Source: a virus
Strand: one strand, 5' to 3'
Length of the DNA stretch: 60,979 nt
IMG/VR virus record: IMGVR_UViG_3300027904_000002
Location: 1 to 60,979 of that record
The position numbers and the translations under genes are program-made. This document shows, in pieces, positions 2,990 through 60,239 of the stretch; the first letter of the stretch is position 1; each line of letters begins with the position of its first letter. The notes under the pieces were generated by a model. The model saw only the letters and a list, made by a program, of their open reading frames with translations, did no database searches and was not told where the DNA came from.

Positions 2990-3126
2990 TATATGTTTCC
3001 TCCGTATATTGTAGTGCGGAGGTTGAGCGTGGTCGGCTTAAGCTACTGGCGACTACGCTCTGTCACCGCCATATTCAAAACGTGTCGCCAGCATAACACG
3101 GTTGAAACGGTATAATCAGTTACTTA
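2990..3126 (-). promoter_or_regulatory. GC-rich structured 5' leader with an SD-sequestering hairpin
   Basis: On the mRNA, CCUCCG (3022-3017) can pair with the SD CGGAGG (3004-2999). There is also an 8-bp stem ctggcgac (3046-3053) / gtcgccag (3084-3091). Confidence 0.45.
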
Positions 3127-3684
3127 CTAAGCGTAAGCACCTTGAGGTGTGCAAGGGTACGGTGGGTGTGCTGAATAATAACTCGGCACTGCGCCAAGAC
3201 CCCTAATACCAATAATCGTTTCGAGATTATTAAGTTTAAGTTCCGTTGCTCTTAACTTATCCTCTCTGAGATTATTTTCAAGCGTACAAATGCGATTCAT
3301 TATTTCGCTTGTAGATTTTAGTCCAAGTATCTCATTTTCCTTAAATCCCAAAGTGACTAAGTTTCTGTTTTCAAGAGCAGTTTTATCTTGTTGCCAACCT
3401 ACTAATGCAATCTCTTTTTTGATATTTCCCGATTCAAGAAGTAAATCCCTATGTTCGCAACAACAACCATCTTCTTTGCCAAATTTATTAAGTGCCAAAG
3501 CAGGAAGAACACCGTCTATGCCATAGTTGCCTTTGTGGTCATCCCTACGCCAGAATAACGCAATTATGACAACAAAAATGACAAAAATAATCACTGCCCA
3601 AAAAGGATTGTTCCAAGTACCGTTTTGATAATCGCTACCGCCACTTGAAGTAAAATTAGAGGGCATCATCGCTTCGTGTATCAT
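3127..3684 (-). CDS. Single-pass membrane protein with a CCC motif and coiled-coil C-terminal region
   Basis: 185 aa. Hydrophobic segment FWAVIIFVIFVVIIALFW, then DGCCCEH and a heptad-like stretch. Confidence 0.7.
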   Translation of the reverse strand: MIHEAMMPSNFTSSGGSDYQNGTWNNPFWAVIIFVIFVVIIALFWRRDDHKGNYGIDGVLPALALNKFGKEDGCCCEHRDLLLESGNIKKEIALVGWQQDKTALENRNLVTLGFKENEILGLKSTSEIMNRICTLENNLREDKLRATELKLNNLETIIGIRGLGAVPSYYSAHPPYPCTPQGAYA

Positions 3685-3733
3685 TTCTTATATTACCTTT
3701 CTTATTAAATATTATAACCAACAATTTGTTGGA

Positions 3734-4003
3734 TTATTTCTTTTCTGGAGGTGCTTGCGGAATCTGTATCGTATGTGGTGTTTGTGTGTGTTGCGGAGGT
3801 TGTTGAGTTTGCTGTGGATAATCATGTGGAGATTGTTGAAAACTTGGTTGAGGTATGTGTTGCGGAAGTGCTTGTGGTTGTTCTGCACTACTTAATCCTA
3901 ATTGCTGTGCTATATATGGTTTTATTAAACTTATTATCAAAGCACTCGCAGCAACTACAGGGTCTTGGACTGCTTCGTTCACCATTTTCTGTATATCTAA
4001 CAT
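3734..4003 (-). CDS. Gln/Pro-rich small protein
   Basis: 89 aa. C-terminal half reads QPQALPQHIPQPSFQQSPHDYPQQTQQPPQHTQTPH. It is tightly packed with its neighbours. Confidence 0.6.
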   Translation of the reverse strand: MLDIQKMVNEAVQDPVVAASALIISLIKPYIAQQLGLSSAEQPQALPQHIPQPSFQQSPHDYPQQTQQPPQHTQTPHTIQIPQAPPEKK

Positions 4004-4007
4004 AACA

Positions 4008-4307
4008 TTATCCTCCTAACCAACTGTTAATTATTTTATCTTTTACACCCATTTCAGATATTGTGTTTTCAACAAAAGACTGTACATCTTCTGGGTTTTT
4101 ATTTTTTAATTCTCTCCAACTTGGAACATTGTCAAATGCGGAAATCATACCATTTTGTTTTGCCATTTCCTCAAGTCCATTTATAAGTTGTGATAATGAA
4201 GCACCACTTTGTACCATTTGATTAAACTGCTGTTGCATTTGATAAGAATTAGGTACTTTAGGCATATACCACGATAGAACAGCTTTAGCAAGAGCTTCAT
4301 ATATCAT
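4008..4307 (-). CDS. Hypothetical protein
   Basis: 99-aa ORF with a 4-nt overlap with the upstream gene. Confidence 0.65.
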   Translation of the reverse strand: MIYEALAKAVLSWYMPKVPNSYQMQQQFNQMVQSGASLSQLINGLEEMAKQNGMISAFDNVPSWRELKNKNPEDVQSFVENTISEMGVKDKIINSWLGG

Positions 4308-4921
4308 TTTTTAGTACCACCCTTTTTAGATTCTTTTTGTTTGACAATATCTTTAACATAAACATACGGTGTTTCAGCTATTTGTAAAATTAAATCATCA
4401 ATTTTACCGAAACTTTGCTGTATATTTTCAGACAATGTATCAACAGACTCTTTAATGTCGCCCAGACTGTCCAGAATCGTTTCTGTAGCGTTTTTATTGT
4501 CTTGCATGACTTCTGATACCTCTGATTCTGAAATCGACTCTGAGGGCGTAGAAATGGCTTTAAACGTCTTTCGTACCGTTTTCGGTATTGACGCTATGAA
4601 CTGTTGAGTATAAAAGCAATCTTCTGTAGGGTTATAAAACACTTGAACATTGCCCGATAAATCTACATCCTTTTCCCATGCTTGTGATTCTGCGGACACG
4701 ATAGCGTATAATTTGTTATCATTCGGATTATTAGCGATGGGAGACTGATTAACAGGATTAGTAGCTTGTGTAGGGGGTGTATGCGGTTGTTGTGTTTGTC
4801 CATAACCATATCCTTGTTCAAGATTGTTAAGCCTGTTTAATAGGTCGTTGTATTGTTGGTTTGGTTGTTGTGGATATTGAGGGTAATGTTGCGGATAATA
4901 ACTATTCGGATAATTGTACAT
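4304..4921 (-). CDS. Hypothetical protein with a Tyr/Pro/Gln-rich N-terminus
   Basis: 205 aa, starting MYNYPNSYYPQHYPQYPQQPNQQYN. Confidence 0.7.
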   Translation of the reverse strand: MYNYPNSYYPQHYPQYPQQPNQQYNDLLNRLNNLEQGYGYGQTQQPHTPPTQATNPVNQSPIANNPNDNKLYAIVSAESQAWEKDVDLSGNVQVFYNPTEDCFYTQQFIASIPKTVRKTFKAISTPSESISESEVSEVMQDNKNATETILDSLGDIKESVDTLSENIQQSFGKIDDLILQIAETPYVYVKDIVKQKESKKGGTKK

Positions 4922-5242: not shown

Positions 5243-5839
5243 TTATTTATCATTAGTCAAATGCCTTGCGGTCGCTATTGCAAATAAATGAGCAATATTA
5301 TCCGATAATCTCGATACGTTATAAGAATCACAATCTAAAACGTCTTGTACCATTTTAAAAGAGCGACCTTCACGCCAGATATACTTATAAACGACTTTGA
5401 TAGAATCATCATCTTGTTCATTAACCAAATTCTCAAGTTCTTTTATGACAGGATGATTAGGGTCATTATTACGTATGTAATTCATTACTTCGGCATGTTT
5501 ACGTTCTTTTGACCATGCAAACAAAAACGTATCACTCACATTAAATCTATCTGTCAATACCAAAGCAAAAAATGCAGTTACCACTAACGATATAGTTATG
5601 TCAATATGTGCTATTGCAAATAACGATACAAACAATATTACGCTTGCGAAAAAGCACCTAATCGGGCATTTATAATGTTTAGTTTTTCCGCAAATATTTC
5701 TAACTACAAGAAAAAAGACCAAGATATATGCCACATACCTCCATGTAGGCAATATCCATAGTCCGATTGCTACTATTGTTGTTAACTCTATTCCAAACAG
5801 CAACAAGGCTTTCCAATATTTCTTAAACCACGCTCTCAT
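5243..5839 (-). CDS. Polytopic membrane protein with a cytoplasmic HTH-like C-terminal domain
   Basis: ATG 5839 (MRAWFKKYWK...) lies within ORF 5243..5920. There are about 4 hydrophobic segments. The C-terminus DSIKVVYKYIWREGRSFKMVQDVLDCDSYNVSRLSDNIAHL resembles sigma region-4/HTH. Confidence 0.65.
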   Translation of the reverse strand: MRAWFKKYWKALLLFGIELTTIVAIGLWILPTWRYVAYILVFFLVVRNICGKTKHYKCPIRCFFASVILFVSLFAIAHIDITISLVVTAFFALVLTDRFNVSDTFLFAWSKERKHAEVMNYIRNNDPNHPVIKELENLVNEQDDDSIKVVYKYIWREGRSFKMVQDVLDCDSYNVSRLSDNIAHLFAIATARHLTNDK

Positions 5840-5929
5840 AATGCCCTCGCTCCCAATTATCTTCCACGCTTCAATTATTCGCCTGTTTCTTCGCAGTATA
5901 GGAATCCAATAGTACACCACCCGAACATT

Positions 5930-6463
5930 TTAAACACCCCTTTCAATCATTGTTATAGGAATAATAAGTTGTACAGCAATTAATAAAATATTAAACATAA
6001 CGCAACTTATGTTACGAACTGTAACGCTCTTAATTTTGGGATTATCGCTTTTATCCCAAACAGATAAATATACTTTATATAATTTATTAATATGTTTTTT
6101 AAACACTGTTACACAAGCAAATAATGAAATCCACCCAAGTAACCATCCTAAAATTTCATTTGGTATCGCATAAAAAACGATTGTACCAACTATTACACTA
6201 ATTATTCCTGCTACAGTTATTAAAAATACATCTATAAAGTGTGAACGATATAATAACCATAAAGTTAAATACATTAAAGCAATAAAAATCAAAACTCCCC
6301 ACAACATAAACGGAATAAAAATCTTTATAAGAAAATTCGATAAAAATATAATCGCAATTAATAAAACACGTTTGTACTTAATGTTTTTTGCAAAAATAAG
6401 AAAAAGTCCATAATATAAACTTTCTGGTAGTAATCCTAAAAATATTCCCATTAAAATTTCCAT
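5930..6463 (-). CDS. Polytopic (about 6 TM) membrane protein
   Basis: ATG 6463 is preceded by gaggtggggtt. The sequence is almost entirely hydrophobic segments. Confidence 0.7.
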   Translation of the reverse strand: MEILMGIFLGLLPESLYYGLFLIFAKNIKYKRVLLIAIIFLSNFLIKIFIPFMLWGVLIFIALMYLTLWLLYRSHFIDVFLITVAGIISVIVGTIVFYAIPNEILGWLLGWISLFACVTVFKKHINKLYKVYLSVWDKSDNPKIKSVTVRNISCVMFNILLIAVQLIIPITMIERGV

Positions 6464-6609
6464 AACCCCACCTCTTTCAAGTAAGTGTAAGTATACAGAA
6501 ATAAACTGAAAAAGCAACCCTTTTCATGAATTAGTCTTGATAACTTAATGGTTTGTTAATGTAAAAACCAGATATAGTGTTATATAATAAAAAGTTATCA
6601 AAATGTAGT

Positions 6610-7446
6610 TTATGGAATTACTATGCGTTGCCCTATAGATATAACATTAGCATTTTTTATTTGAGGGTTAGCAGACATTATAGCGTTTACGGTAGTTGAA
6701 TACATACCGGCTATTCTGCTTAGATTTTCTCCTGCTGTGACAATGTGAGTACGTGTTGTAGGTTGAGTTTGTATCGGTGGTGGTATTGTAGTAGATGTCG
6801 GCACATTTATAATTTGTCCAATATCAATACGATTGATGTCACCGATTTGTCCGTTTAAATTCCACAATTCATCTGTTGTTAAATTAAAACGTCTTGCGAT
6901 TGCAGTAAACGTATCGCCACTTTGTACGATATATGTACCTGCTTGTGCAGGTGGTGTCGGATTAGGTTGTTGTGGTGTATTTGCATTTGCAAGTCTAACA
7001 GCTTCTTGCACTGCATTATTACCACGTTGCCACCAATCTCTGCTTGTTTGCAAACTTCTAAATCTGACTTCCATGCTGTTTATATAGTGCAAGCACATAT
7101 GAGAACCCTCTGAATTACGTCTTAAATCAGAAGTAAATATATTAAAAGAATTTGAAGCAACAACAACGCTGTGTGGCATGGTATGAATAGCACAAGCGGT
7201 TACATTATTACCCCATTGTAGTGTACAGGGAATCCAATTCCAAGACCAATTACCACCAGACCATCTTAGCAACCTCTCAGCGTCTTGTCGTGTTTTTGGC
7301 ATATAATCCGAATGATGATAGTTTTGTGGTGAACTTAATCTGATAATTACAGTTTCATTATTACGCAAGTTTCTTAATGTAGCGTCACCGTTTAAGCGTG
7401 GTGTCGCAGCGTTCATCTGTGCTATTGTCATTGCAGTTACGCTCAT
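6610..7446 (-). CDS. Putative endolysin: unassigned N-terminal catalytic domain plus two C-terminal LysM repeats
   Basis: LysM-like segments YIVQSGDTFTAIARRFNLTTDELWNLNG...IGQIINVP and HIVTAGENLSRIAGMYSTTVNAIMSANP...IGQRIVIP. The gene sits directly after the holin-like gene. Confidence 0.65.
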   Translation of the reverse strand: MSVTAMTIAQMNAATPRLNGDATLRNLRNNETVIIRLSSPQNYHHSDYMPKTRQDAERLLRWSGGNWSWNWIPCTLQWGNNVTACAIHTMPHSVVVASNSFNIFTSDLRRNSEGSHMCLHYINSMEVRFRSLQTSRDWWQRGNNAVQEAVRLANANTPQQPNPTPPAQAGTYIVQSGDTFTAIARRFNLTTDELWNLNGQIGDINRIDIGQIINVPTSTTIPPPIQTQPTTRTHIVTAGENLSRIAGMYSTTVNAIMSANPQIKNANVISIGQRIVIP

Positions 7447-15442: not shown

Positions 15443-15820
15443 TTACATCTCTATTATATTGATTTGCGCACCGTGTACCCACGCACCACGCTTTACACTT
15501 ATCAACCTTGCTTCACGCTTATTTATATAACCTGTAAAATTTACCATACCACCTGTGTATGTGTTGTATGCTGTATAAGTATTCACTCTGCCATTAGCAG
15601 ACACAGCATTTGCAAATTGTCTAAACCTTGCACTCATTTTATGGCTTTTAGGGAATTGTAATTCAACCCTATGCTTAGTACCGATAATAGTAAATTCCAT
15701 TAATCCGTCAAGAGGGTTTCTACCACTGCCCTCTGCGTGCAAATCCTCTGTGACAAAGTTATAGTTTTCTCTGAATATTAAATCTGAAAAGTCTTGACCG
15801 TTTACCAATAACAACGTCAT
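15443..15820 (-). CDS. Tail component in the distal-tail-protein position
   Basis: 125-aa ORF overlapping the tape-measure stop by 4 nt. The call is positional only. Confidence 0.4.
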   Translation of the reverse strand: MTLLLVNGQDFSDLIFRENYNFVTEDLHAEGSGRNPLDGLMEFTIIGTKHRVELQFPKSHKMSARFRQFANAVSANGRVNTYTAYNTYTGGMVNFTGYINKREARLISVKRGAWVHGAQINIIEM

Positions 15821-18800
15821 GTTTTAAACACCACCTTACCCGCTTGTAAAGATGAATCGTTGATACCATTACGGATTATTCTAAGCAGTAACTTTTCGTT
15901 AAAGTACCCTGCCATTTCTTGATTCATTATAGCGTCAATCAATTCTTCAAGTAAACTATTTGTAGTTTGTTGTTCCGCATATAAATCATCAAGCCTTTTG
16001 CTGTCAAAATCAACTGCACCACCGTACTCGCCACCCATTGTTCGACCTTTTTCAACTAATGCACTTATCGTAGAACCGCTTATAAGCCCTCCTCTGGGCA
16101 TTTCGGGTAACTTGAGTTGAATATCGCTTATAGCTGTTAAAGCTTCGTACAGGCGATTTATTTCAACGAGAACATCATCTACAAAGCCTTTGAATAAATC
16201 ACGCCATGAATCAAGCATATGCTCTATAGCCATTATCGGTGAATCTTCTTCATCTTCCATGCCCTTAAACAAGCCTTGCATTAAAAATTGACCTATTTTA
16301 GCAAATACTACGGAGGGTGATTTTACACCGAATATGCCACTTACCGTATTAATAACAGAACTTGCTATATTGCTAACAACATTAAACACTGCACTTGCCA
16401 TGCTTGAAATACCGTTTGCTAATCCGCTCATTAAGTTAGAGCCGATTGTTTTCATGTTATTTACAAGACCGCTAAAGAAGTTTTGTACACTATTGCCTAT
16501 AGTTTGTGCAGCATTAACAACCGTTGATTTTGCTTTTGTCATTGCATTTGACATATTAGTAATTGTAGCTCTGCCAGTTTCAGTAAACCATTCTCTGGCA
16601 TTGCTAAATGCGTCTTTTACGTCATTCCAACGATTTGTAAAGAATTGTTTTGTGCCACTCCATGCTTTTTCAACACCATCTTTTGCACTTTTGAATTTAT
16701 CTGTAAACCATTCTCCGACATTTTTAAATACGTCTGTAATTCCATTCCAAATATCAGTAAACAATTTGATTACATTTTCTATTAATTTTGAAATACCCTC
16801 AAGCATACCCTCAATTATCCATCCACCAATTTCAGCCATTACAGTAGACGGTGATTTTATGCCAAATAAACCTTTTAAAGCGTCTATAATAGGAGCAAAT
16901 ATATTTTCTCTTATCCAAGTAAACGGATTCGGCATACCGTCTAAAATCCCACCAAATAATCCGTTGATTATATCCCACCCGATTTCCATAATTATAAACG
17001 GAAGCTCTAACATTGTTGTTACGATATAATCAACGATTCCTACTACGATTTTCCCTATGCCCTGCCATGCAGTTTCCCAATCGCCTGTAAATACACCGAC
17101 AAGAAAATCAATAATTCCACCTAAAAGATATAAAAATGGTTCAAGAATATCCATTATAAGATTAAATGCACCCTTTACAGCAGCAACGATACCTCTAAAT
17201 ACGCCTTTTACAACTTCCCATAAAACGTTAAGCACCATTTTTAAGTTTTCAAAATCAATAATCCCATCATCTATTGCTTTTTTTACAATCAGGAAAACAG
17301 CAACAATACCTGCGATTACAGCAATAATTTTAGCAAAAGGTATCAATAAAGCAATAGCACTTTTACCTAATAAAGCAAAAGCAAATCCCGTCAGAGCTGC
17401 TTTTGCTAATAGCGGAACTATAATACCTGCCAATAATCCAAATACAGTTACAGCAGTGCTTATTTTCATTATCAAACTTCCAATATCAACATCGTTTTCT
17501 TTTATCCACTCCGCTAATCTTTCAAATGCGTTTGCAATCCAATCTATTACAGCAGGTAGTGTTGTTTCAGCTAATTTTGTAAACATAGGCAATAAAGTAT
17601 TTTCCCATGCGTCAGCAAGGCTATCTAAAATAACAGTAGCCAATTTATTAAATGCTATAAGCAATCTTTCAACACTTTCCAATAATGGACTTGCATTAAG
17701 TGTTTTCGCCCATTCAGCAGTAGATTTTGTAATCCTGTCGATAAACCCTAATACTAAAAGCAATAAATCAAGGATATGCCCCCAAATTCTCACACCTAAT
17801 TCATTTTCATTCCACGCTACTCTAAATCGCTCAACCAAATTCTCAACAAAATTAGCAATATTTGTTATTATTTGAAGTATAAATGCAAATATACGCACAC
17901 CACGTTCATTTTCATTCCAAGCTTTAATAAACGCTTCACCTATATCGTTAGCAAATCCCAAGATAGAAGTCATTGCTCTTGTGATAGCCAAAAGCATGTT
18001 ATATCCTCTGTCGTTTTCATTCCAAGCTTTTCTAAATGCGTCACCTATATAATGAATCAAATCAGCAATCAATATCAATGTTCTTGCTACTTCATCTAAA
18101 AACTTATCCCAAGTAGCAGACGCAAATAGCCTTGCCAAATCATTCATAACGTCAATCAGTAAATCTCTTACTGTCGTCATTGCACGTTTCCAAGCTTCTA
18201 CAATAGCTTCACCGTGACGCTCCCACATGCGTACTAATGAGTTCCAAAATTCTTGAGCCATATTTTTTAATGCATCCCATAAAGGCTCAAGCCAATCTAA
18301 TAGCTTTTTAAACCATTCGGGAACTTCGGGTAATTCAAAATCAAAATCGGGAATCAAATCAGACATATCCGTATCTTCTGCTTTTGAACTAACTACAATC
18401 AATTCATCAAATGGTGCTAAAAATCGTTCTAATGCTTTTGCACCCGCTTTAGAAGCTTTAACATTTTCCCACATTGCTTTTGCGTTTTTCTTCATTATGT
18501 TAGGGTCTAATTTGAAAAAGTAAGAAGCCATTACAGCTAAATATTGCATTGCTTTAGCAAGTAAATTTACAAAGTGCAATAAAATAGGTACTATTACTTC
18601 AAAAAATGGTTGAAATGCGGTTAATGCAGAGCCTTTAAGCAATGCCAAAGCCGACCTAAATTCTGTTGTAACCATCAAGGCTTCATTTACATACCGCACA
18701 TATTCCCTTAGTTTTCTGCGTATTTGATTAAACACCATAGCAGTAACAGCTAAACCAATCAGACGAGCGTTTAGCTTGCCAAATGCACTATTTGCTTTAT

Positions 18801-20097
18801 TTGTTTCTCTTGTAGTTTGTTTCATACTACGATTTACAGTAAATAGATTTTTTATAAGCCTACCTGTAAATCTAACAGCATTGCCAAATGCTTGTCTTAC
18901 TCTTTTTCCAAATGCTGATATGCTTCTTTCAATAAATTTCAAAGCATAGAACATCCTAAAAGATACTTCAACGCCTTTTAACTTTTCCTTGTTTGCCATT
19001 GATTGCTGTTCTTTATAGAAACCAAGTGTGCCGGATAATTCTTTTAGTTTTTGTTCTAATCTGCCATATTCGGTACTTGCCTGTCTTGCATTTTTTGAAG
19101 CTTGCTCAATAGCTTCAACCTCTTTCATTGAAGTAACTTTTTCGGGTACGGTTATAGGTTTTTCCATAACCTGCCTTAACGCACCCATTCTGTTCTTTAG
19201 CTTTTCAATTTGCAATTCAGTACGCTTAATAGCACTTTCAGCTTGACTAAACGACATAACAGATTTAGCACTAACTTCTTGAGATACTTGTGATATTTTA
19301 CCCAAAGATTCTGTAGTGCTATCTACAGAATTTTTTAATGCTTGTGTTATAACAGGTTCAACAGGTTTGGTTTCTACTCTTTGTTCAAGTGCTTTAACAA
19401 TTTGTTGTGAAGCTTTTATTTCAGCACTTACTCTATGGTCGATTCTCCGCATTGCGTCAGCGTGAAGTTGAGCGTCAGCTTGTGCTTCTTGTTGATGTCG
19501 TGCTTGCATATCTGCCATAGCTTGTTTTCGGGCATTAGCACGTTCCAACTCTTTTTGCGTTAAAGATTGTTGTTTTTGTTCCTCTTGCGTCAACAATCCC
19601 AACCGTTGACCGATTGCTTGAACGTCTGCGGTAATTGCACCTGTAGATTCTTGTCGCAACCTGTGTTGTTCTAATATTCTCGCATTTTCTTCACGGGCGA
19701 ATTCAATTCGTTTTTGTTCATCTCTCTCAAATGCTGTAGATGCTTCACCTAACTTTTTAAAGCTATCTGTAGTTTGATTAATTGGTGATTCTAACTTCTT
19801 TATATCATTTCCAATGTTGCCTAATGTTTTTGGAATAGGTGTCAAAGCATTTTCCATGCCTTGAAATGCAGCTGTTATAATTCCAGACGTTTTATCAGCA
19901 GAATTTTGTACTTCTGTTAAACTCTGCTCTACGCTTTTAGTGTTTAATTCTGCACCAACAACAACTTTAGGTGGCTCAAACTTTCCAATTTTAGCCAACT
20001 TGTCTTGTAGTTTATTTATTTCATCGTCTATGCCAGTTGTGTCAAGCTTTACATCAATTTTTACAGAACCGTCTGCCACTGTTTCACCACTTTTCAT
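15817..20097 (-). CDS. Tail tape measure protein
   Basis: 1426 aa. Coiled-coil N-terminal third, hydrophobic central segments, and a threefold AWNEN(D/E)RG / AWNENELG repeat. It lies downstream of the chaperone-position genes. Confidence 0.9.
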   Translation of the reverse strand: MKSGETVADGSVKIDVKLDTTGIDDEINKLQDKLAKIGKFEPPKVVVGAELNTKSVEQSLTEVQNSADKTSGIITAAFQGMENALTPIPKTLGNIGNDIKKLESPINQTTDSFKKLGEASTAFERDEQKRIEFAREENARILEQHRLRQESTGAITADVQAIGQRLGLLTQEEQKQQSLTQKELERANARKQAMADMQARHQQEAQADAQLHADAMRRIDHRVSAEIKASQQIVKALEQRVETKPVEPVITQALKNSVDSTTESLGKISQVSQEVSAKSVMSFSQAESAIKRTELQIEKLKNRMGALRQVMEKPITVPEKVTSMKEVEAIEQASKNARQASTEYGRLEQKLKELSGTLGFYKEQQSMANKEKLKGVEVSFRMFYALKFIERSISAFGKRVRQAFGNAVRFTGRLIKNLFTVNRSMKQTTRETNKANSAFGKLNARLIGLAVTAMVFNQIRRKLREYVRYVNEALMVTTEFRSALALLKGSALTAFQPFFEVIVPILLHFVNLLAKAMQYLAVMASYFFKLDPNIMKKNAKAMWENVKASKAGAKALERFLAPFDELIVVSSKAEDTDMSDLIPDFDFELPEVPEWFKKLLDWLEPLWDALKNMAQEFWNSLVRMWERHGEAIVEAWKRAMTTVRDLLIDVMNDLARLFASATWDKFLDEVARTLILIADLIHYIGDAFRKAWNENDRGYNMLLAITRAMTSILGFANDIGEAFIKAWNENERGVRIFAFILQIITNIANFVENLVERFRVAWNENELGVRIWGHILDLLLLVLGFIDRITKSTAEWAKTLNASPLLESVERLLIAFNKLATVILDSLADAWENTLLPMFTKLAETTLPAVIDWIANAFERLAEWIKENDVDIGSLIMKISTAVTVFGLLAGIIVPLLAKAALTGFAFALLGKSAIALLIPFAKIIAVIAGIVAVFLIVKKAIDDGIIDFENLKMVLNVLWEVVKGVFRGIVAAVKGAFNLIMDILEPFLYLLGGIIDFLVGVFTGDWETAWQGIGKIVVGIVDYIVTTMLELPFIIMEIGWDIINGLFGGILDGMPNPFTWIRENIFAPIIDALKGLFGIKSPSTVMAEIGGWIIEGMLEGISKLIENVIKLFTDIWNGITDVFKNVGEWFTDKFKSAKDGVEKAWSGTKQFFTNRWNDVKDAFSNAREWFTETGRATITNMSNAMTKAKSTVVNAAQTIGNSVQNFFSGLVNNMKTIGSNLMSGLANGISSMASAVFNVVSNIASSVINTVSGIFGVKSPSVVFAKIGQFLMQGLFKGMEDEEDSPIMAIEHMLDSWRDLFKGFVDDVLVEINRLYEALTAISDIQLKLPEMPRGGLISGSTISALVEKGRTMGGEYGGAVDFDSKRLDDLYAEQQTTNSLLEELIDAIMNQEMAGYFNEKLLLRIIRNGINDSSLQAGKVVFKT

Positions 20098-26908: not shown

Positions 26909-27841
26909 TTATGGCATACTATCGTTAGTAATCCATGTCATAGATGTGCGAATGTCGTTATTTGCACTTGCGATATTAACTGTTGGTCTTACTGTACTTC
27001 TTGCAGTTCCGCTTGCTTCGCTCACTTGTAATCTCAAGTTTGCAGCAGCAGGAACAATAGCCGATGTAGCTGTCGCAGTAGGTCTAAATCCTATAGGAAT
27101 TGTCCATAGATTTTGTGCTGTTGTAATAGCACCTGCCGCTTTTTCGTTAGGAATATCCATTACAACAACTTGACCAACTCTTGACAAAACAGGAGTGTTT
27201 GTGTCTGTAAATATCGTTGGCGCTTGTGCCGAAACAGACAATCCGTTTGCACCAGACCATTGCCTAAAAACTATTGACCTACCAACAGTAGCGTCACTTA
27301 TTTGTCCGAACCAAAAAGCGTGTCTCTGTGACGCTGTTCCAGATGTTTGAGTCAAAGCAACCGCTGAACTAAAGCTAAAGCTAAAAACATCACCTTGCTC
27401 ACATTCTGACACAGCAAAAATGCTAGGACTAATTACCCCCAAATTCATACCTTTATTATTCCACGTTTTTAATATTTCAGCTCCTCTATACAGTTGAATC
27501 CGAATACTTTCATTACTTACAACATTTTTATTTCCCGCTCCTATAAATAATGCCCATGTTCCCTTATTTGAAACAGTTAAGTATACACCATTTATAAGGT
27601 TTGTTCCTTTTTCAAAAACAGGAGTAAGGTCAGTAAATGTTTCTAAACTGGCGACTGCCGTTACGCTTCTACTCGCATAATTCCCCTCACAGTACGGCAA
27701 CCCCATCAATCCTGCTCTGCCTAGTATGATGTCAAGGTTTTCACCGTCTTTACCAAACACACCGTTGGTAGCAGTCACGGGGGCATAGGGGTTTCCCTCA
27801 TGGTCTAATGCTATGCCTAGTGGTAATTCGTGTATGTTCAT
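26909..27841 (-). CDS. Fibre-like protein with C1q/TNF-like jelly-roll motifs (family member 4)
   Basis: LTPVFEKGTNLINGVYLTVSNKGTWALF ... ECEQGDVFSFSF parallels the C-terminus of 27851..29113. Confidence 0.55.
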   Translation of the reverse strand: MNIHELPLGIALDHEGNPYAPVTATNGVFGKDGENLDIILGRAGLMGLPYCEGNYASRSVTAVASLETFTDLTPVFEKGTNLINGVYLTVSNKGTWALFIGAGNKNVVSNESIRIQLYRGAEILKTWNNKGMNLGVISPSIFAVSECEQGDVFSFSFSSAVALTQTSGTASQRHAFWFGQISDATVGRSIVFRQWSGANGLSVSAQAPTIFTDTNTPVLSRVGQVVVMDIPNEKAAGAITTAQNLWTIPIGFRPTATATSAIVPAAANLRLQVSEASGTARSTVRPTVNIASANNDIRTSMTWITNDSMP

Positions 27842-27850
27842 AAATATCTC

Positions 27851-29113
27851 CTATGCTATTCTGCGGAATAAAAAGCTTAAAGGGGGCGATGTAGGGGTTA
27901 TTGAAGTTCTTGCGATTGCGCTATTGATTTGAACACGTATGCGCTCACCTTGTTTTAAATCTTCAACGTATACTATCGACATAAAAGAACCCGCATTAGC
28001 TGCACTAACATCATGTCTGAAATGTCGAGATTTTTCGGAAATAGTTGTTATGCTTTCTGTGCTTGCCAACACCATAACATGAACATTACCTGCCGTAGTT
28101 GGTGCAAACAAAAATCTTCTAGTTGATAAAACATAAGTACCCTTTTCGGGTGCTATTAAAAACGTACCATCTACCATATTTATGCCCGATTCAAAAACTG
28201 GTGTTATTGCCTCGTCAACACCTGCCGCTAAACTTCTGTCTTGAAAACGACCACGCATTGACGGCATATCCATCTTAATAACAGCAGGACTACCATCAAA
28301 CGGTTTCATTGTAGGTACTGCCGCAGGGTAATTCAACCAATTCCAATAAGTACCATCCCATTGGAAATCCCAATCGCCAACAGTTAACAAAGACGCTATT
28401 ATCGGTTGACCATTCCAACGTATTTCAGCAGCACCTGTAGTTGTGACGTTCAATCTCGGTGTTGCGTGTGTGTTTGCTACTGTTAACCGTATTGTCACTC
28501 TCGGATTGCCAACACGGACGAAGCCTGTAATCGTAGACGCTTTGTCTTGTGTTCCTGCTGCTGTGTTGCTTGTGCCATACCATATATCTTGAGCGTTAAT
28601 CCACAACTTTAAGCGGTCACGGTTTGCTTGTGGTAGTTGTGTTGTTGTTGGTGCTGTTGTCGGTGTTGATATGTTTTGTAAAACTCGACCTGCTTGTTCG
28701 GATGTTAATGTTTGAGCAGCGTCAAAACGTAATCTTGTATTGAACAGGTGCAACATTTTATTCCAAATACTTTGAAGTGTGTTTAGTAATGTTACGTTTG
28801 TTGTAGCCGCAGGTGCTGCACTATCTGCGGTTGGAGTAGCTAAACTAAACGTAGTGTCTCTTACTTGCTGTGGGTCGAAAACGCCACCTGTTCCACCATC
28901 ACCATCAACAGGAAACTTAACAAATTTTGTTCCGTCATATCCGATTTTATAAACTTTCGGAGGATTTCCAACAACGGAAACAACTTGTCCGTTAAATGCT
29001 TCACCTACAAGCAAATAATTATCAAGCATTGCTTCATTTTCAAATGTGCTTGAAACATCAAGTGGTCGTCTATTTAATCTTTTAAAGCTACCTGCTTGAT
29101 TAATAGTTGACAT
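27851..29113 (-). CDS. Fibre-like protein: shared N-terminal module plus C1q/TNF-like C-terminus (family member 3)
   Basis: The N-terminus MSTINQAGSFKRLNRRPLDVSSTFENEAMLDNYL parallels that of 29123..30487. The C-terminus reads ITPVFESGINMVDGTFLIAPEKGTYVLS ... DLKQGERIRVQI. Confidence 0.55.
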   Translation of the reverse strand: MSTINQAGSFKRLNRRPLDVSSTFENEAMLDNYLLVGEAFNGQVVSVVGNPPKVYKIGYDGTKFVKFPVDGDGGTGGVFDPQQVRDTTFSLATPTADSAAPAATTNVTLLNTLQSIWNKMLHLFNTRLRFDAAQTLTSEQAGRVLQNISTPTTAPTTTQLPQANRDRLKLWINAQDIWYGTSNTAAGTQDKASTITGFVRVGNPRVTIRLTVANTHATPRLNVTTTGAAEIRWNGQPIIASLLTVGDWDFQWDGTYWNWLNYPAAVPTMKPFDGSPAVIKMDMPSMRGRFQDRSLAAGVDEAITPVFESGINMVDGTFLIAPEKGTYVLSTRRFLFAPTTAGNVHVMVLASTESITTISEKSRHFRHDVSAANAGSFMSIVYVEDLKQGERIRVQINSAIARTSITPTSPPLSFLFRRIA

Positions 29114-29122
29114 AACTAACTC

Positions 29123-30487
29123 CTATATTGTCAGTGTAAAACGCTCATTTGAAATAAACGGAAACTCGGGAAGTAAATAAAGTATTCTATAATCAACGGC
29201 GGTAAATCCATTTGCTCCTTGAACAGAAACTATAATTTCAGTAAACAATGACTTCACATCACTTCCAAGACCTGCTTGAACAATGCTTGTTGGAAACCTT
29301 AAACTGCTTGGATATGCGAATACAACACCACGACCACCTGTAGGCACTTCTGCAATCATTTGAAAATTCTCACCAACATTTAATTGACTGCTTGCTAAAG
29401 CACGAATAAACGCTGAATTGTTAGGTATAGTTCCGTCTGCCAATACACCCCAAAAAGACCTGCGTTGTGGAGTGTATGTTACGTTATTTGATGTAATCGA
29501 ACCTGCTTCAATTCTTCCAACCGGGTCTGGGTTTCCCTCACTGTCGTCTTTAACCGCTCCTTGAGCAAAATCAACAATAGCTTGATATGTTCTGTTAGTA
29601 GTCAGTTGAAAAGTTGTATCGGAGTGAGCAATCGGAGTAGCACCTGTATAAATGTTTGTTCCATCACGAGTAACCCTATATCCTGTTGCCCCACCACTAT
29701 CCCCTGCGTTCCAATCAGGCGTTAGTGTAGGTGTGATATTTTCCCCTATTTCTCTTGCAAGCGGAGCAGTACCACTAAGCGACAAAGTAGGTGCTGTATA
29801 TTTTGCAGGAACACGAGGGTTTAATATTTTACGCATTGTTGCCAATAGGGTATCTGTATCAGATATTACAGTTCCGCTTGCTAACCCTAAATTTGCATTA
29901 GTAACTGGAATAGTCGCCCCAGATATAATATCATCAAAACTGCCCCCAACTTCACCTGCCTGCCAAACACGGTTTAAATCCCATGTTATAGCACCAGAAG
30001 TAGCATTTATTTCTTTTACAACGTATCTTGTATAATTTCCGTTTTGCGTTTCGTCAACACGAACATAAGCGAAATCATTTACAGATATGCTTTTCCATGC
30101 AGATTTATTTGTGGGTAAGTCCGCTTTTGTATTGAAAGTTCCTGCATATTGACCAAGTTCTGCGATTCCGTCTATTCTATCAGCTAATTCACCTAATTTT
30201 GCCCTTATATCTGCATGAGATAATTCTGATATATTATGAGCATTTATCGCAGTATCTATATCTTCTGTATCACCACTTATAGGTGAATAAGTAAAATCCT
30301 CGTTTATGATAAAGACCAAAGGTGTGTTTTCAGCAGTACGAACACTGACTATTTGTCCGACATAAGCCGCACCTGTTGCAAGATAACTTTCAAACAAAGC
30401 CATATTGTTAAACGTTACGTCTGGGTCTAAATTTCCTCTAAATAATCTTTTAAATTGACCTGCTACGTTTATTGCATTAACTGACAT
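29123..30487 (-). CDS. Fibre-like protein (family member 2)
   Basis: The N-terminus MSVNAINVAGQFKRLFRGNLDPDVTFNNMALFESYL is shared with 27851..29113. The C-terminal ~225 aa are paralogous to 30500..31477. Confidence 0.55.
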   Translation of the reverse strand: MSVNAINVAGQFKRLFRGNLDPDVTFNNMALFESYLATGAAYVGQIVSVRTAENTPLVFIINEDFTYSPISGDTEDIDTAINAHNISELSHADIRAKLGELADRIDGIAELGQYAGTFNTKADLPTNKSAWKSISVNDFAYVRVDETQNGNYTRYVVKEINATSGAITWDLNRVWQAGEVGGSFDDIISGATIPVTNANLGLASGTVISDTDTLLATMRKILNPRVPAKYTAPTLSLSGTAPLAREIGENITPTLTPDWNAGDSGGATGYRVTRDGTNIYTGATPIAHSDTTFQLTTNRTYQAIVDFAQGAVKDDSEGNPDPVGRIEAGSITSNNVTYTPQRRSFWGVLADGTIPNNSAFIRALASSQLNVGENFQMIAEVPTGGRGVVFAYPSSLRFPTSIVQAGLGSDVKSLFTEIIVSVQGANGFTAVDYRILYLLPEFPFISNERFTLTI

Positions 30488-58685: not shown

Positions 58686-58714
58686 TTGACTTATCCCGAA
58701 ACATCTGTTATTAT
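58686..58714 (+). promoter_or_regulatory. Divergent rightward promoter
   Basis: TTGACT (58686-58691), 17 nt, TATTAT (58709-58714). Confidence 0.65.
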
Positions 58715-58744: not shown

Positions 58745-59368
58745 ATGAGCAAAATGAAAACATTAAAATGTAGGGCAACACTTATGGAGGAAATGTTAGG
58801 CACGCAAGCTAACGACAAAGAAATACATGAGGAATATATCGCAAGTTTAGCACCTGACGCTCCGAGCAGAGAGGAAGAAGTGGCTGCAATCGGTGTTGAA
58901 GCAGAAGTAGAAAAATCAATGACAGTGTTTCCACGATTAAACGGTAAACCAGACGGACAACCGTTTATGTGGGATTATCAAATTAAAGGTTTTCTGAAAG
59001 AGTCCGCAAGAGCGATGGCAAGGGTAGGTGGCTCGGAAACATCAAAAACAAAAGCATACATTAAAATCATAAACGATTGTGTTTTTGTATATCCACGCAA
59101 AATACCATTATGCTATGAGGGTGCTGAACAAGGCATTGTAGGCAATATGCAAAGACCATTACGGGCGCAAACAGCACAAGGGGAGCGTGTGACGCTTGCT
59201 AATAGTGAAACAGTACCCGCAGGAACAACATTTGATTTTGAAATTAAAATGCTTGACGTTAAATTTGAAAAACTAATCCGTGAGTTGCTTGACTACGCTC
59301 AATACAAGGCTTTTTTACAGTGGCGTAACAGTGGTTATGGTCGTGCGGAAATAACTGTGCAAGATTAA
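58745..59368 (+). CDS. Orphan 207-aa protein of unknown function (weak RAMP-like motifs)
   Basis: The only plus-strand gene in this region. DGQPFMWDYQIKGFLKESARAM and C-terminal QWRNSGYGRAEITV are loosely reminiscent of the RAMP IKG..R and G-rich loop motifs. Confidence 0.7.
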   Translation: MSKMKTLKCRATLMEEMLGTQANDKEIHEEYIASLAPDAPSREEEVAAIGVEAEVEKSMTVFPRLNGKPDGQPFMWDYQIKGFLKESARAMARVGGSETSKTKAYIKIINDCVFVYPRKIPLCYEGAEQGIVGNMQRPLRAQTAQGERVTLANSETVPAGTTFDFEIKMLDVKFEKLIRELLDYAQYKAFLQWRNSGYGRAEITVQD

Positions 59369-60213
59369 ACGTGATTGTAAGGCGAAGCGTTTTAATTTGA
59401 GGTGTAGGTAAGGTAAGGTTTAGTGTCGTACAGTGGCGTGATTGTTCCGCAAGGTATTTTGCCGTAATGTTTGGGTGTAGTGACGTAAGGTATTGTGATG
59501 GTTTAGTGACATGCTGTACCTTGACGTAATGGCAAAGTGAGGTAAAGCAAAGTTGCGTCACGTGCTTTAAAGCAATGAAACGGTAGAGTAAAGTCTTGTG
59601 CCCTTGCGTATAGTTTTGGTGCGGTACAGTATATTTGTTTTTTTGTGGCGTAATGGTTAGGTACGATATTGTGTGTTTTGGTACTGTCTGATACGGTGAC
59701 GGCATGGTTCAATATGGTCTTGTACGGCTCTGTGGTGGTGAAGTCCAATAATGTGAAATACGGTCAAGTAGATGTACGGTAGTGTGGGATAGGGTTGAAT
59801 GTTGTCAAGGTTTTGTGATGAACAGCGATATTGTGCTTTGGTTTCGTTATAGTTTAGTTCAGTTAAGTGAATTAAAGTGCAGTAAAGGTAAGGTCGTGCA
59901 TCGCAAAATGAGGTAGCTTAATGGTGCAGTAGGGTCAAGTTTCGTGGGGTTTAGTATTGGTAAGGTGAGGTGGGGTGTAGTGACGTGGTTTGCTGTAATG
60001 GTACAGTTCGGTTAAGTCACATATTGTTTCGTTACGGTTTGGCATGGTTGAGTCTGCTGTTGTAAATGTCATGTCTCGTGAGACATAGTATAGGTTTGGT
60101 GGAGTAGAGTCATATGTTGTTTTGGCGAAGTGAGGTTGTGAAAGTTGTATAAAGTGATGGTATGGCAATGTGAAATGCAATAGAGTAGAATGATGTATAT
60201 TTTTGTATAACAC
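59369..60213 (+). other. ~845-bp non-coding, GT-rich/C-poor strand-asymmetric tract with dispersed short repeats
   Basis: Hand counts over three 60-nt lines (59401, 59701, 59941) give C = 6, 8, 3 and G = 21, 18, 26. The exact 14-mer gggtgtagtgacgt occurs at 59473 and 59973. ggcatggtt occurs at 59701 and 60041. ggtttagt occurs at 59417, 59500 and 59948. A palindrome atgtctcgtgagacat lies at 60071-60086. Confidence 0.7.
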
Positions 60214-60239
60214 AAAAACCCCTCGCTTTAGAGGGGTTT
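60214..60239 (-). terminator. Rho-independent terminator (hairpin is usable in both directions)
   Basis: aaaaacccctc-gcttta-gaggggttt. On the minus strand it follows the stop of 60238..60612 and is followed by tttttgtgtt. Confidence 0.8.

Follow-up and report, generated by a model that had tools for sequence, protein, structure and literature searches.

The systems called Viral Interference Programmable Repeat (VIPR) were described in two bioRxiv preprints in 2026, the second of which is devoted to structures (10.64898/2026.04.26.720920 and 10.64898/2026.04.26.720927). According to the text of these preprints, Vipr is a phage-encoded RAMP protein of approximately 20 kDa that branches before the RAMPs of CRISPR systems, and VIPR is reported as a possible ancestor of the CRISPR RAMPs as well as a minimal programmable DNA binder (10.64898/2026.04.26.720920,.720927). 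The vrRNA consists of 9–16 YNNGG repeats (GGY/NN) followed by a 3′ tail (10.64898/2026.04.26.720920), the variants NNNGG, YNNNG and NNNNG being named in the preprint methods, and certain arrays are staggered and without separators while others are interspersed with (hammerhead) ribozymes (10.64898/2026.04.26.720920,.720927). One Vipr protomer is placed on each repeat and the protein polymerises, with the GGY element gripped between thumb and G-loop (10.64898/2026.04.26.720927); the NN bases read dsDNA, and one base is skipped per unit, usually the wobble position of a codon (10.64898/2026.04.26.720920,.720927). In this manner VIPR silences the transcription of rival phages, satellites and prophages, and the loci typically comprise two genes, vipr and vap, of which vap is not a defining feature; the founding survey covers 2,664 sequences, and seven types are distinguished (10.64898/2026.04.26.720920). 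In a characterised example, Vipr of Escherichia phage SUSP1, W178-R179 hold the GGY element (stacking on G2 and closing the Y3 pocket), H17 and D177 read the first G, and K82 and K88 act as clamps on the non-target DNA strand (10.64898/2026.04.26.720927).

The current study concerns a stretch of viral DNA of 60,979 nucleotides (IMG/VR record IMGVR_UViG_3300027904_000002, positions 1 to 60,979), here called the window, in which an orphan early gene adjoins a GT-skewed non-coding tract. Employing a combined approach of profile, structural and periodicity analysis, we conclude, with a probability that we put at nearly nine in ten, that this gene (vipr) and the tract constitute a VIPR system, i.e. 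a Vipr-type RAMP with a pentanucleotide-repeat guide RNA array. As judged from its sequence, the locus would represent a new member of a kind that was itself described only in the 2026 preprints.

Results

Gene and transcription unit

The open reading frame of vipr was confirmed on the plus strand and encodes 207 aa as listed (Table 1), although the real start of the gene is probably the ATG at 58754, which would yield a protein of 204 aa; this codon is favoured by the database copies, including those of the ESM Atlas, and by its sensible spacing from the ribosome-binding site. The rightward promoter faces a leftward promoter located at 58654-58626. The first-pass annotation had noted that no terminator intervenes between gene and tract, and this is indeed the case, as no terminator-like site was found between the vipr stop codon and the hairpin that follows the array. 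Given the rightward promoter and the location of this first terminator-like site, vipr and the tract are predicted to form a single transcription unit.

The motif (T)ACAGTGGCGTRA is present at 59313-59332, 59426-59445 and 59638-59657, the first copy being situated where vipr ends, over the codons for QWRN in the G-loop, and the two others lying within the array. The first copy is overlapped by a promoter-like site, albeit a weak one (59314-59341).

Table 1. Coordinates of the predicted features of the vipr locus in the window.
Feature	Position	Strand	Remarks
Sigma-70-like promoter, TTGACT-17-TATTAT with TG extension	58686..58714	+	10/12 consensus matches
vipr gene, single-RRM RAMP protein, 207 aa (204 aa if start at 58754)	58745..59368	+	
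vrRNA-type array, 163 tandem N1-G2-Y3-N4-N5 units	59371..60210	+	
Candidate guide, units 15-26	59449..59510	+	sole array stretch with near-perfect 1-nt-skip matches
Intrinsic terminator hairpin, bidirectional	60216..60239	.	terminates the array transcript as well as the leftward gene that converges on it

Relatives, conservation and fold of the protein

The gene product had initially been regarded as an orphan, a view that must be abandoned since 5,049 clusters (90% identity) are related to the 207-aa protein at E ≤ 1e-3, corresponding to 1,996 representatives at the 50% identity level. The nearest ESM Atlas clusters are approximately 90–98% viral and all unnamed. Among species-representative genomes of bacteria, at least 151 contain relatives as well. 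Most of them belong to gut Clostridia (Oscillospiraceae, Lachnospiraceae and others), alongside some Bacteroidales, Coriobacteriia and Megasphaera, and the copies are probably carried by prophages; the bulk of the family as a whole comes from phages of the gut and from prophages of Clostridia. Searches of annotated collections were less rewarding: tblastn against the GenBank phages matched only four records, all unannotated faecal phages, Pfam returned no match, PHROGs gave just a weak match to a family of unknown function, and NCBIfam gave matches to Csm4 only, far under the cut-off (15 versus 55 bits).

In an alignment of 34 sequences of the window protein's family (A1), residues P70, Y75, Q76, G79, K82, W190, R191, G194 and G196 are invariant, as is K104, while K98 is conserved in at least 90% of the sequences. 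The two segments in which faint RAMP-like motifs had been perceived are present and show the highest conservation within the family, the invariant blocks of A1 coinciding exactly with both. When compared to PDB sequences, the A1 profile retrieved type VII Cas7 (E 6.7e-4), followed by Csm4 and Cmr4. An AlphaFold (AF2) model of the protein (pLDDT 80.6) found its best Foldseek matches in type VII Cas7 and Csm3 (E ~1e-7), and VIA-align superimposed it on Csm3 (6ae2_B) with a Z score of 12.7 and an rmsd of 2.8 Å over 144 residues; the first 21 VIA-align entries are CRISPR RAMP-type proteins without exception (21/21), with Cas6 proteins further down the list at Z ~7. The model comprises a helical-bundle insert (residues ~20–55), helix-1 (74–88), a thumb hairpin (130–154) and the G-loop QWRNSGYGR (189–197). 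The modelled fold is that of a Cas7/Csm3-type RAMP, and not one unrelated to RNA-binding proteins, an outcome that would have spoken against the initial proposal.

As Csm3 and type VII Cas7 are its nearest matches among solved structures, and as some phages carry homologs of cas genes by which CRISPR is antagonised (preprint 10.1101/2023.06.24.545427), the protein could be viewed as a phage-borne Cas7 mimic, i.e. an anti-CRISPR that enters or sequesters host type III or type VII effectors, with the tract being an unrelated RNA or a decoy. Indeed, the backbone proteins Csm3, Cmr4 and type VII Cas7 share with the window protein an RRM, a thumb and a G-loop (Z 11–12.7), and have in common with Vipr the placement of one protomer per RNA segment and thumb-induced base flipping. 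Cas7 effectors, however, employ 6-nt crRNA segments and are accompanied by cas genes and a CRISPR array, whereas the array of the window has a period of 5.16 nt and neither cas genes nor CRISPR repeats were detected near vipr at the window locus. Furthermore, the window protein contains its own helical bundle instead of the separate small subunit of Cas7 effectors, and its RNA scaffold is defined by sequence, every unit carrying G-Y, unlike that of Cas7 systems. A Cas7 mimic would also leave the near-universal same-strand pentamer array described below unexplained, while the Trp-Arg pair of the G-loop aligns with the GGY-holding residues of SUSP1 Vipr. We therefore deem an anti-CRISPR function of this kind most improbable; the literature on phage Cas7 homologs and anti-CRISPRs also provided no lead to the identity of the gene.

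Anatomy of the pentamer array

The tract (59369-60213, 845 nt) is composed of 292 T, 264 G, 204 A and 85 C residues, and the dinucleotide GT recurs in it at lags of 5, 10, 15/16, 21 and 26 nt at 2–2.8 times expectation. Fourier analysis over the 845 nt revealed a peak at 5.16 nt with a power of 8.7, compared to 2.2 for the best of 200 shuffles and to just 0.37 at exactly 5.00 nt; no similar periodicity was found elsewhere in the 61-kb record. Segmentation by dynamic programming resolved the array into 163 units of the form N-G-Y-N-N, in which G2 is kept in 81% and Y3 in 98% (T in 88%) while N1, N4 and N5 are variable, N1 being G in 34%, A in 28%, T in 25% and C in 13%. Five nucleotides make up 137 of the units, six make up 25 and four a single one, and 34 degenerate units are scattered along the continuous array.

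The extra nucleotides are spaced regularly, at a mean of 6.1 units and with a coefficient of variation (CV) of 0.31 as opposed to 0.88 for random placement (0 of 20,000 random placements had a CV as low as that observed), so that a super-period of 31 nt, i.e. six units plus one nucleotide, is superimposed on the pentamers. The unit after an extra nucleotide starts with G, and thus displays the full GGY, in 18/25 cases against 37/137 elsewhere (Fisher p = 4e-5). No recurring tail, ribozyme, internal terminator or strong conserved structure was found between sub-arrays, and Rfam gave no match on the tract. A perfect 6-bp hairpin (AUGUCUC-GU-GAGACAU) is located at 60071-60088 inside the array, the C-poor RNA having few other structured spots.

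This anatomy bears on two further readings, namely that the protein is a Cas6-like RAMP which processes or cuts the long transcript and nothing more, or that the RNA sponges a host protein in the manner of TRAP. Cas6 proteins do feature in the fold list, albeit lower, and a continuous array would need to be cut if discrete vrRNAs arise from it. TRAP binds triplets at a spacing of 5–6 nt, and its arrays resemble that of the window in presenting a short motif every 5–6 nt with one subunit per repeat. This likeness is one of spacing only, as TRAP has an unrelated fold and binds 11 (G/U)AG triplets, in contrast to the 163 N-G-Y units of the window. The best structural matches of the window protein are backbone Cas7 and Csm3 rather than Cas6, conservation in the window family extends to the lysines gripping the non-target DNA strand, and the characterised relatives are stated to make filaments and to silence DNA (10.64898/2026.04.26.720920,.720927). 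Both readings are consequently considered highly improbable. The proposal in the first-pass annotation that the tract RNA is cleaved by the protein fares no better, since by homology this RNA would rather be the guide array of a polymerising protein that reads DNA.

Co-occurrence and turnover of gene and array

Co-occurrence was assessed using the Fourier signal of G alone in 100 loci from viruses and metagenomes, the window being one of them. A same-strand array abuts the gene in 98 of these loci (upstream in 62, downstream in 27 and on both sides in nine), and one of the two loci lacking an array is a truncated contig. In an independent set drawn from bacterial genomes the array lies beside the gene in 75 of 80 loci, the remaining five showing sub-threshold peaks, whereas an opposite-strand signal of any kind was obtained in just nine of the 80. 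A previous scan, limited to GT at lags 5 and 10, had detected the tract only in relatives that are at least 75% identical and had suggested that it is absent in homologs of 62% identity or less; this was overturned by the G-only Fourier analysis, which was adopted because one relative has mostly GC instead of GT. Homologs thus retain a periodic tract next to the gene and on its strand, and the suggestion that the protein's partner is the G/U-rich RNA encoded immediately downstream is supported by this co-occurrence and, by analogy, by the binding of such RNA reported for a studied relative.

Every one of the 51 arrays whose signal is strong has its peak at 5.12–5.18 nt, indicating that the extra nucleotide per 6–7 units is a family trait. 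Across the family the unit reads N-G-H-N-N, U being preferred after G in the clade of the window. The arrays are hypervariable next to conserved genes: among relatives that are 75–77% identical the vipr genes retain approximately 70% nucleotide identity, while their arrays are unalignable and of unequal length. One locus of 53% identity (IMGVR_UViG_3300035130_000336) has three arrays around vipr (701-1350, 3101-4700 and 5601-6750), one of which is approximately 1.6 kb long and holds some 295 units.

Neighbour clustering across the 100 loci revealed no conserved coding partner and no vap gene at the window locus, the largest real cluster comprising 20 loci to which the window does not belong. 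In these 20 loci (for example at 5572-5949 of locus L047) a gene of approximately 130 aa, not present in the window, is positioned directly 3′ of vipr; it could represent a clade-specific, vap-like accessory.

The same data weigh on the possibility that the tract is a DNA element, for instance an origin of replication, a hotspot of recombination or a region that is bent or unwinds, whose adjacency to the gene is incidental. The tract adjoins the early and replication region, its period of 5.16 nt approximates half a turn of B-DNA, and GT-rich DNA is favoured by RecA-type pairing. A DNA element would not, however, be expected to occur always on the coding strand of the gene, whether upstream or downstream of it, nor within the same promoter-terminator unit as vipr. 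Moreover, only the G(Y) scaffold is kept while the bases between and the length of the array turn over, and the same motif belongs to an experimentally demonstrated RNA in SUSP1 according to the preprint text (10.64898/2026.04.26.720920). On these grounds an incidental DNA element appears scarcely credible. A TRAP-like sponge, a RecT-type 5-nt footprint and a Chi/RecA-type GT-rich hotspot had also been entertained and were dropped in view of the RAMP fold and the match to the VIPR literature; sponging of ribosomes by Shine-Dalgarno-like sequences was likewise dropped.

Comparison with SUSP1 and other VIPR types

The Vipr protein of SUSP1 was located as a 195-aa open reading frame (KT454805.2, 28474-29061, minus strand), its identity being deduced from H17, K33, R39, R138, D177, W178 and R179, which match the numbering given in the text of the structural preprint. 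The vrRNAs flanking it, at 27499-28031 and 29061-29511 of the same accession, resemble the window tract; they follow a strict 5-nt step across 15 units and have no extra nucleotides, in contrast to the extra nucleotides seen in every array of the window's family.

Comparison of A1 with the single SUSP1 Vipr sequence using hhalign gave an E value of 0.0026 over the full length, while comparison with a profile of the SUSP1 clade (A2, 26 sequences) gave an E value of 1.3e-4 and a probability of 54% over 104 C-terminal columns, from helix-1 to the C-terminus. These values weakly suggest homology of the window family to SUSP1 Vipr. As placed by the alignment, W190-R191 of the window protein correspond to W178-R179, and the helix-1 lysines K98 and K104 to K82 and K88. 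No counterparts were found for the two first-G readers of SUSP1, as H17 is opposite a gap and D177 opposite Q189, which agrees with the free N1 of the window array. From this weak alignment we infer that the free N1 may be linked to the loss of the first-G readers. The relaxed first G would mark a variant, as repeats lacking the first G are listed in the text of the VIPR preprint.

Insofar as the preprint text permits comparison, SUSP1 and the Pseudomonas fulva prophage (VIPR type II) share with the window a RAMP of approximately 200 aa in which a single RRM is combined with a helical bundle, thumb and G-loop, adjacent same-strand pentamers with a conserved G-Y and variable dinucleotides, and arrays that are situated upstream and/or downstream and are hypervariable among close relatives. 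There are differences as well: no vap gene was found at the window locus, the sequence similarity is marginal, the window array runs unbroken for 163 units while that of SUSP1 is described as units of approximately 100 nt with a 3′ pseudoknot tail, its first G is free where SUSP1 has GGY, and it gains one nucleotide per 6–7 units, unlike SUSP1. The window array showed no sign of discrete vrRNAs of 9–16 repeats with a 3′ tail, of pseudoknots or of ribozyme spacers. With regard to the other VIPR types, as worded in the preprint text, the window repeat is YNNNG-like (U-N-N-N-G) and that of the wider family NNNNG-like, and the continuous, tail-less array fits the expression 'staggered arrays', while the 31-nt super-period does not appear in that text. 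Judging from the preprint text, the window locus is possibly of an already described type.

Search for DNA targets

The 1-nt-skip rule of the preprints was applied to every stretch of ten consecutive units against approximately 1 Mb of phage DNA, resulting in one candidate guide (Table 1). When skips of 0–3 nt were tried on this DNA, matches of 19/20 outside the array were obtained with the 1-nt rule only. These 19/20 matches involve units 17–26 and lie over the P-loop codons of a gene for a 677-aa ATPase, both in MT835477.1 and in a related IMG/VR phage; in MT835477.1 the skipped base falls at codon position 1. The ATPase is SMC/RecF-like, and its gene (81210-83243 of MT835477.1; 1480-3513 of the corresponding locus, L003) lies approximately 0.5 kb upstream of that phage's vipr.

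Units 15–22 match the window's own tape-measure gene (15817-20097) at 16/16 positions and in wobble phase (17840-17863, minus strand). As one in 12 permuted arrays gave matches like this in approximately 1 Mb, both chance and self-regulation are possible. An exact scan of IMG/VR with units 15–24 retrieved nine contigs from two gene groups, encoding a 257-aa virion structural protein of 160–259-kb phages and a protein of 53–54 aa, respectively, all nine matches being in wobble phase at codons ~6–16, while controls with permuted order retrieved 6 and 1. Units 15–25 match the 5′ ends of two phage genes at 20–22 of 22 positions, again in wobble phase, and permuted controls scored similarly. Whole-genome scans of five phages revealed no other guides converging on the candidate target phages, and three-base (NNN) reading rules produced nothing above shuffles. 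Since permuted guides score about as well as the real guide, we claim no natural target.

Discussion

The assignment of this locus to VIPR is directly supported by the RAMP fold, the anatomy of the repeats, a transcription unit delimited by consensus signals, same-strand co-occurrence throughout the family, the hypervariability of the arrays next to conserved genes and a weak, though in-register, homology to SUSP1 Vipr, while RNA binding, filament formation, DNA reading, silencing and a role between phages are extrapolated from the VIPR preprints. Following these, an early rightward transcript would carry the vipr mRNA and then approximately 840 nt of pentanucleotide repeats, to which Vipr protomers may bind, one per repeat, by analogy with SUSP1 and P. 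fulva. The conserved G-Y (here N-G-U) would be sequestered between thumb and G-loop and two variable bases per repeat presented, so that a helical ribonucleoprotein filament could read dsDNA in a gapped code in which two bases are read and one is skipped. Such a filament sitting on DNA would constitute a transcriptional block, its likely targets being rival phages and prophages in the same gut Clostridia hosts. For the window family in general, RNA-guided DNA binding and the silencing of rival elements would be expected by homology.

It is conceivable, though on balance doubtful, that the family represents a distinct VIPR architecture, characterised by a tail-less, continuous array of up to approximately 160–300 units, a register reset of +1 nt per 6–7 protomers and an unread first G. 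If true, its assembly, processing or DNA read-out rule would differ from that of SUSP1, for example if each helical turn took one spacer nucleotide, if filaments were very long or if guides overlapped.

Based on the findings of this study, what had been an orphan early gene and a GT-skewed non-coding tract can now be annotated as one functional unit, and testing G for a Fourier period of approximately 5.16 nt provides a simple and reliable means of finding such arrays. The divergent VIPR branch to which the window would belong is extremely frequent among the phages and prophages of Clostridia from the gut, as it encompasses more than 5,000 clusters at 90% identity compared to the 2,664 sequences of the survey as given in the preprint text. 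The locus also offers natural variation for understanding the code, in that a relaxed first G is paired with the loss of two reader residues, and further variation in the form of the regular addition of one nucleotide per 6–7 units, very long tail-less arrays and the lack of an accessory protein.
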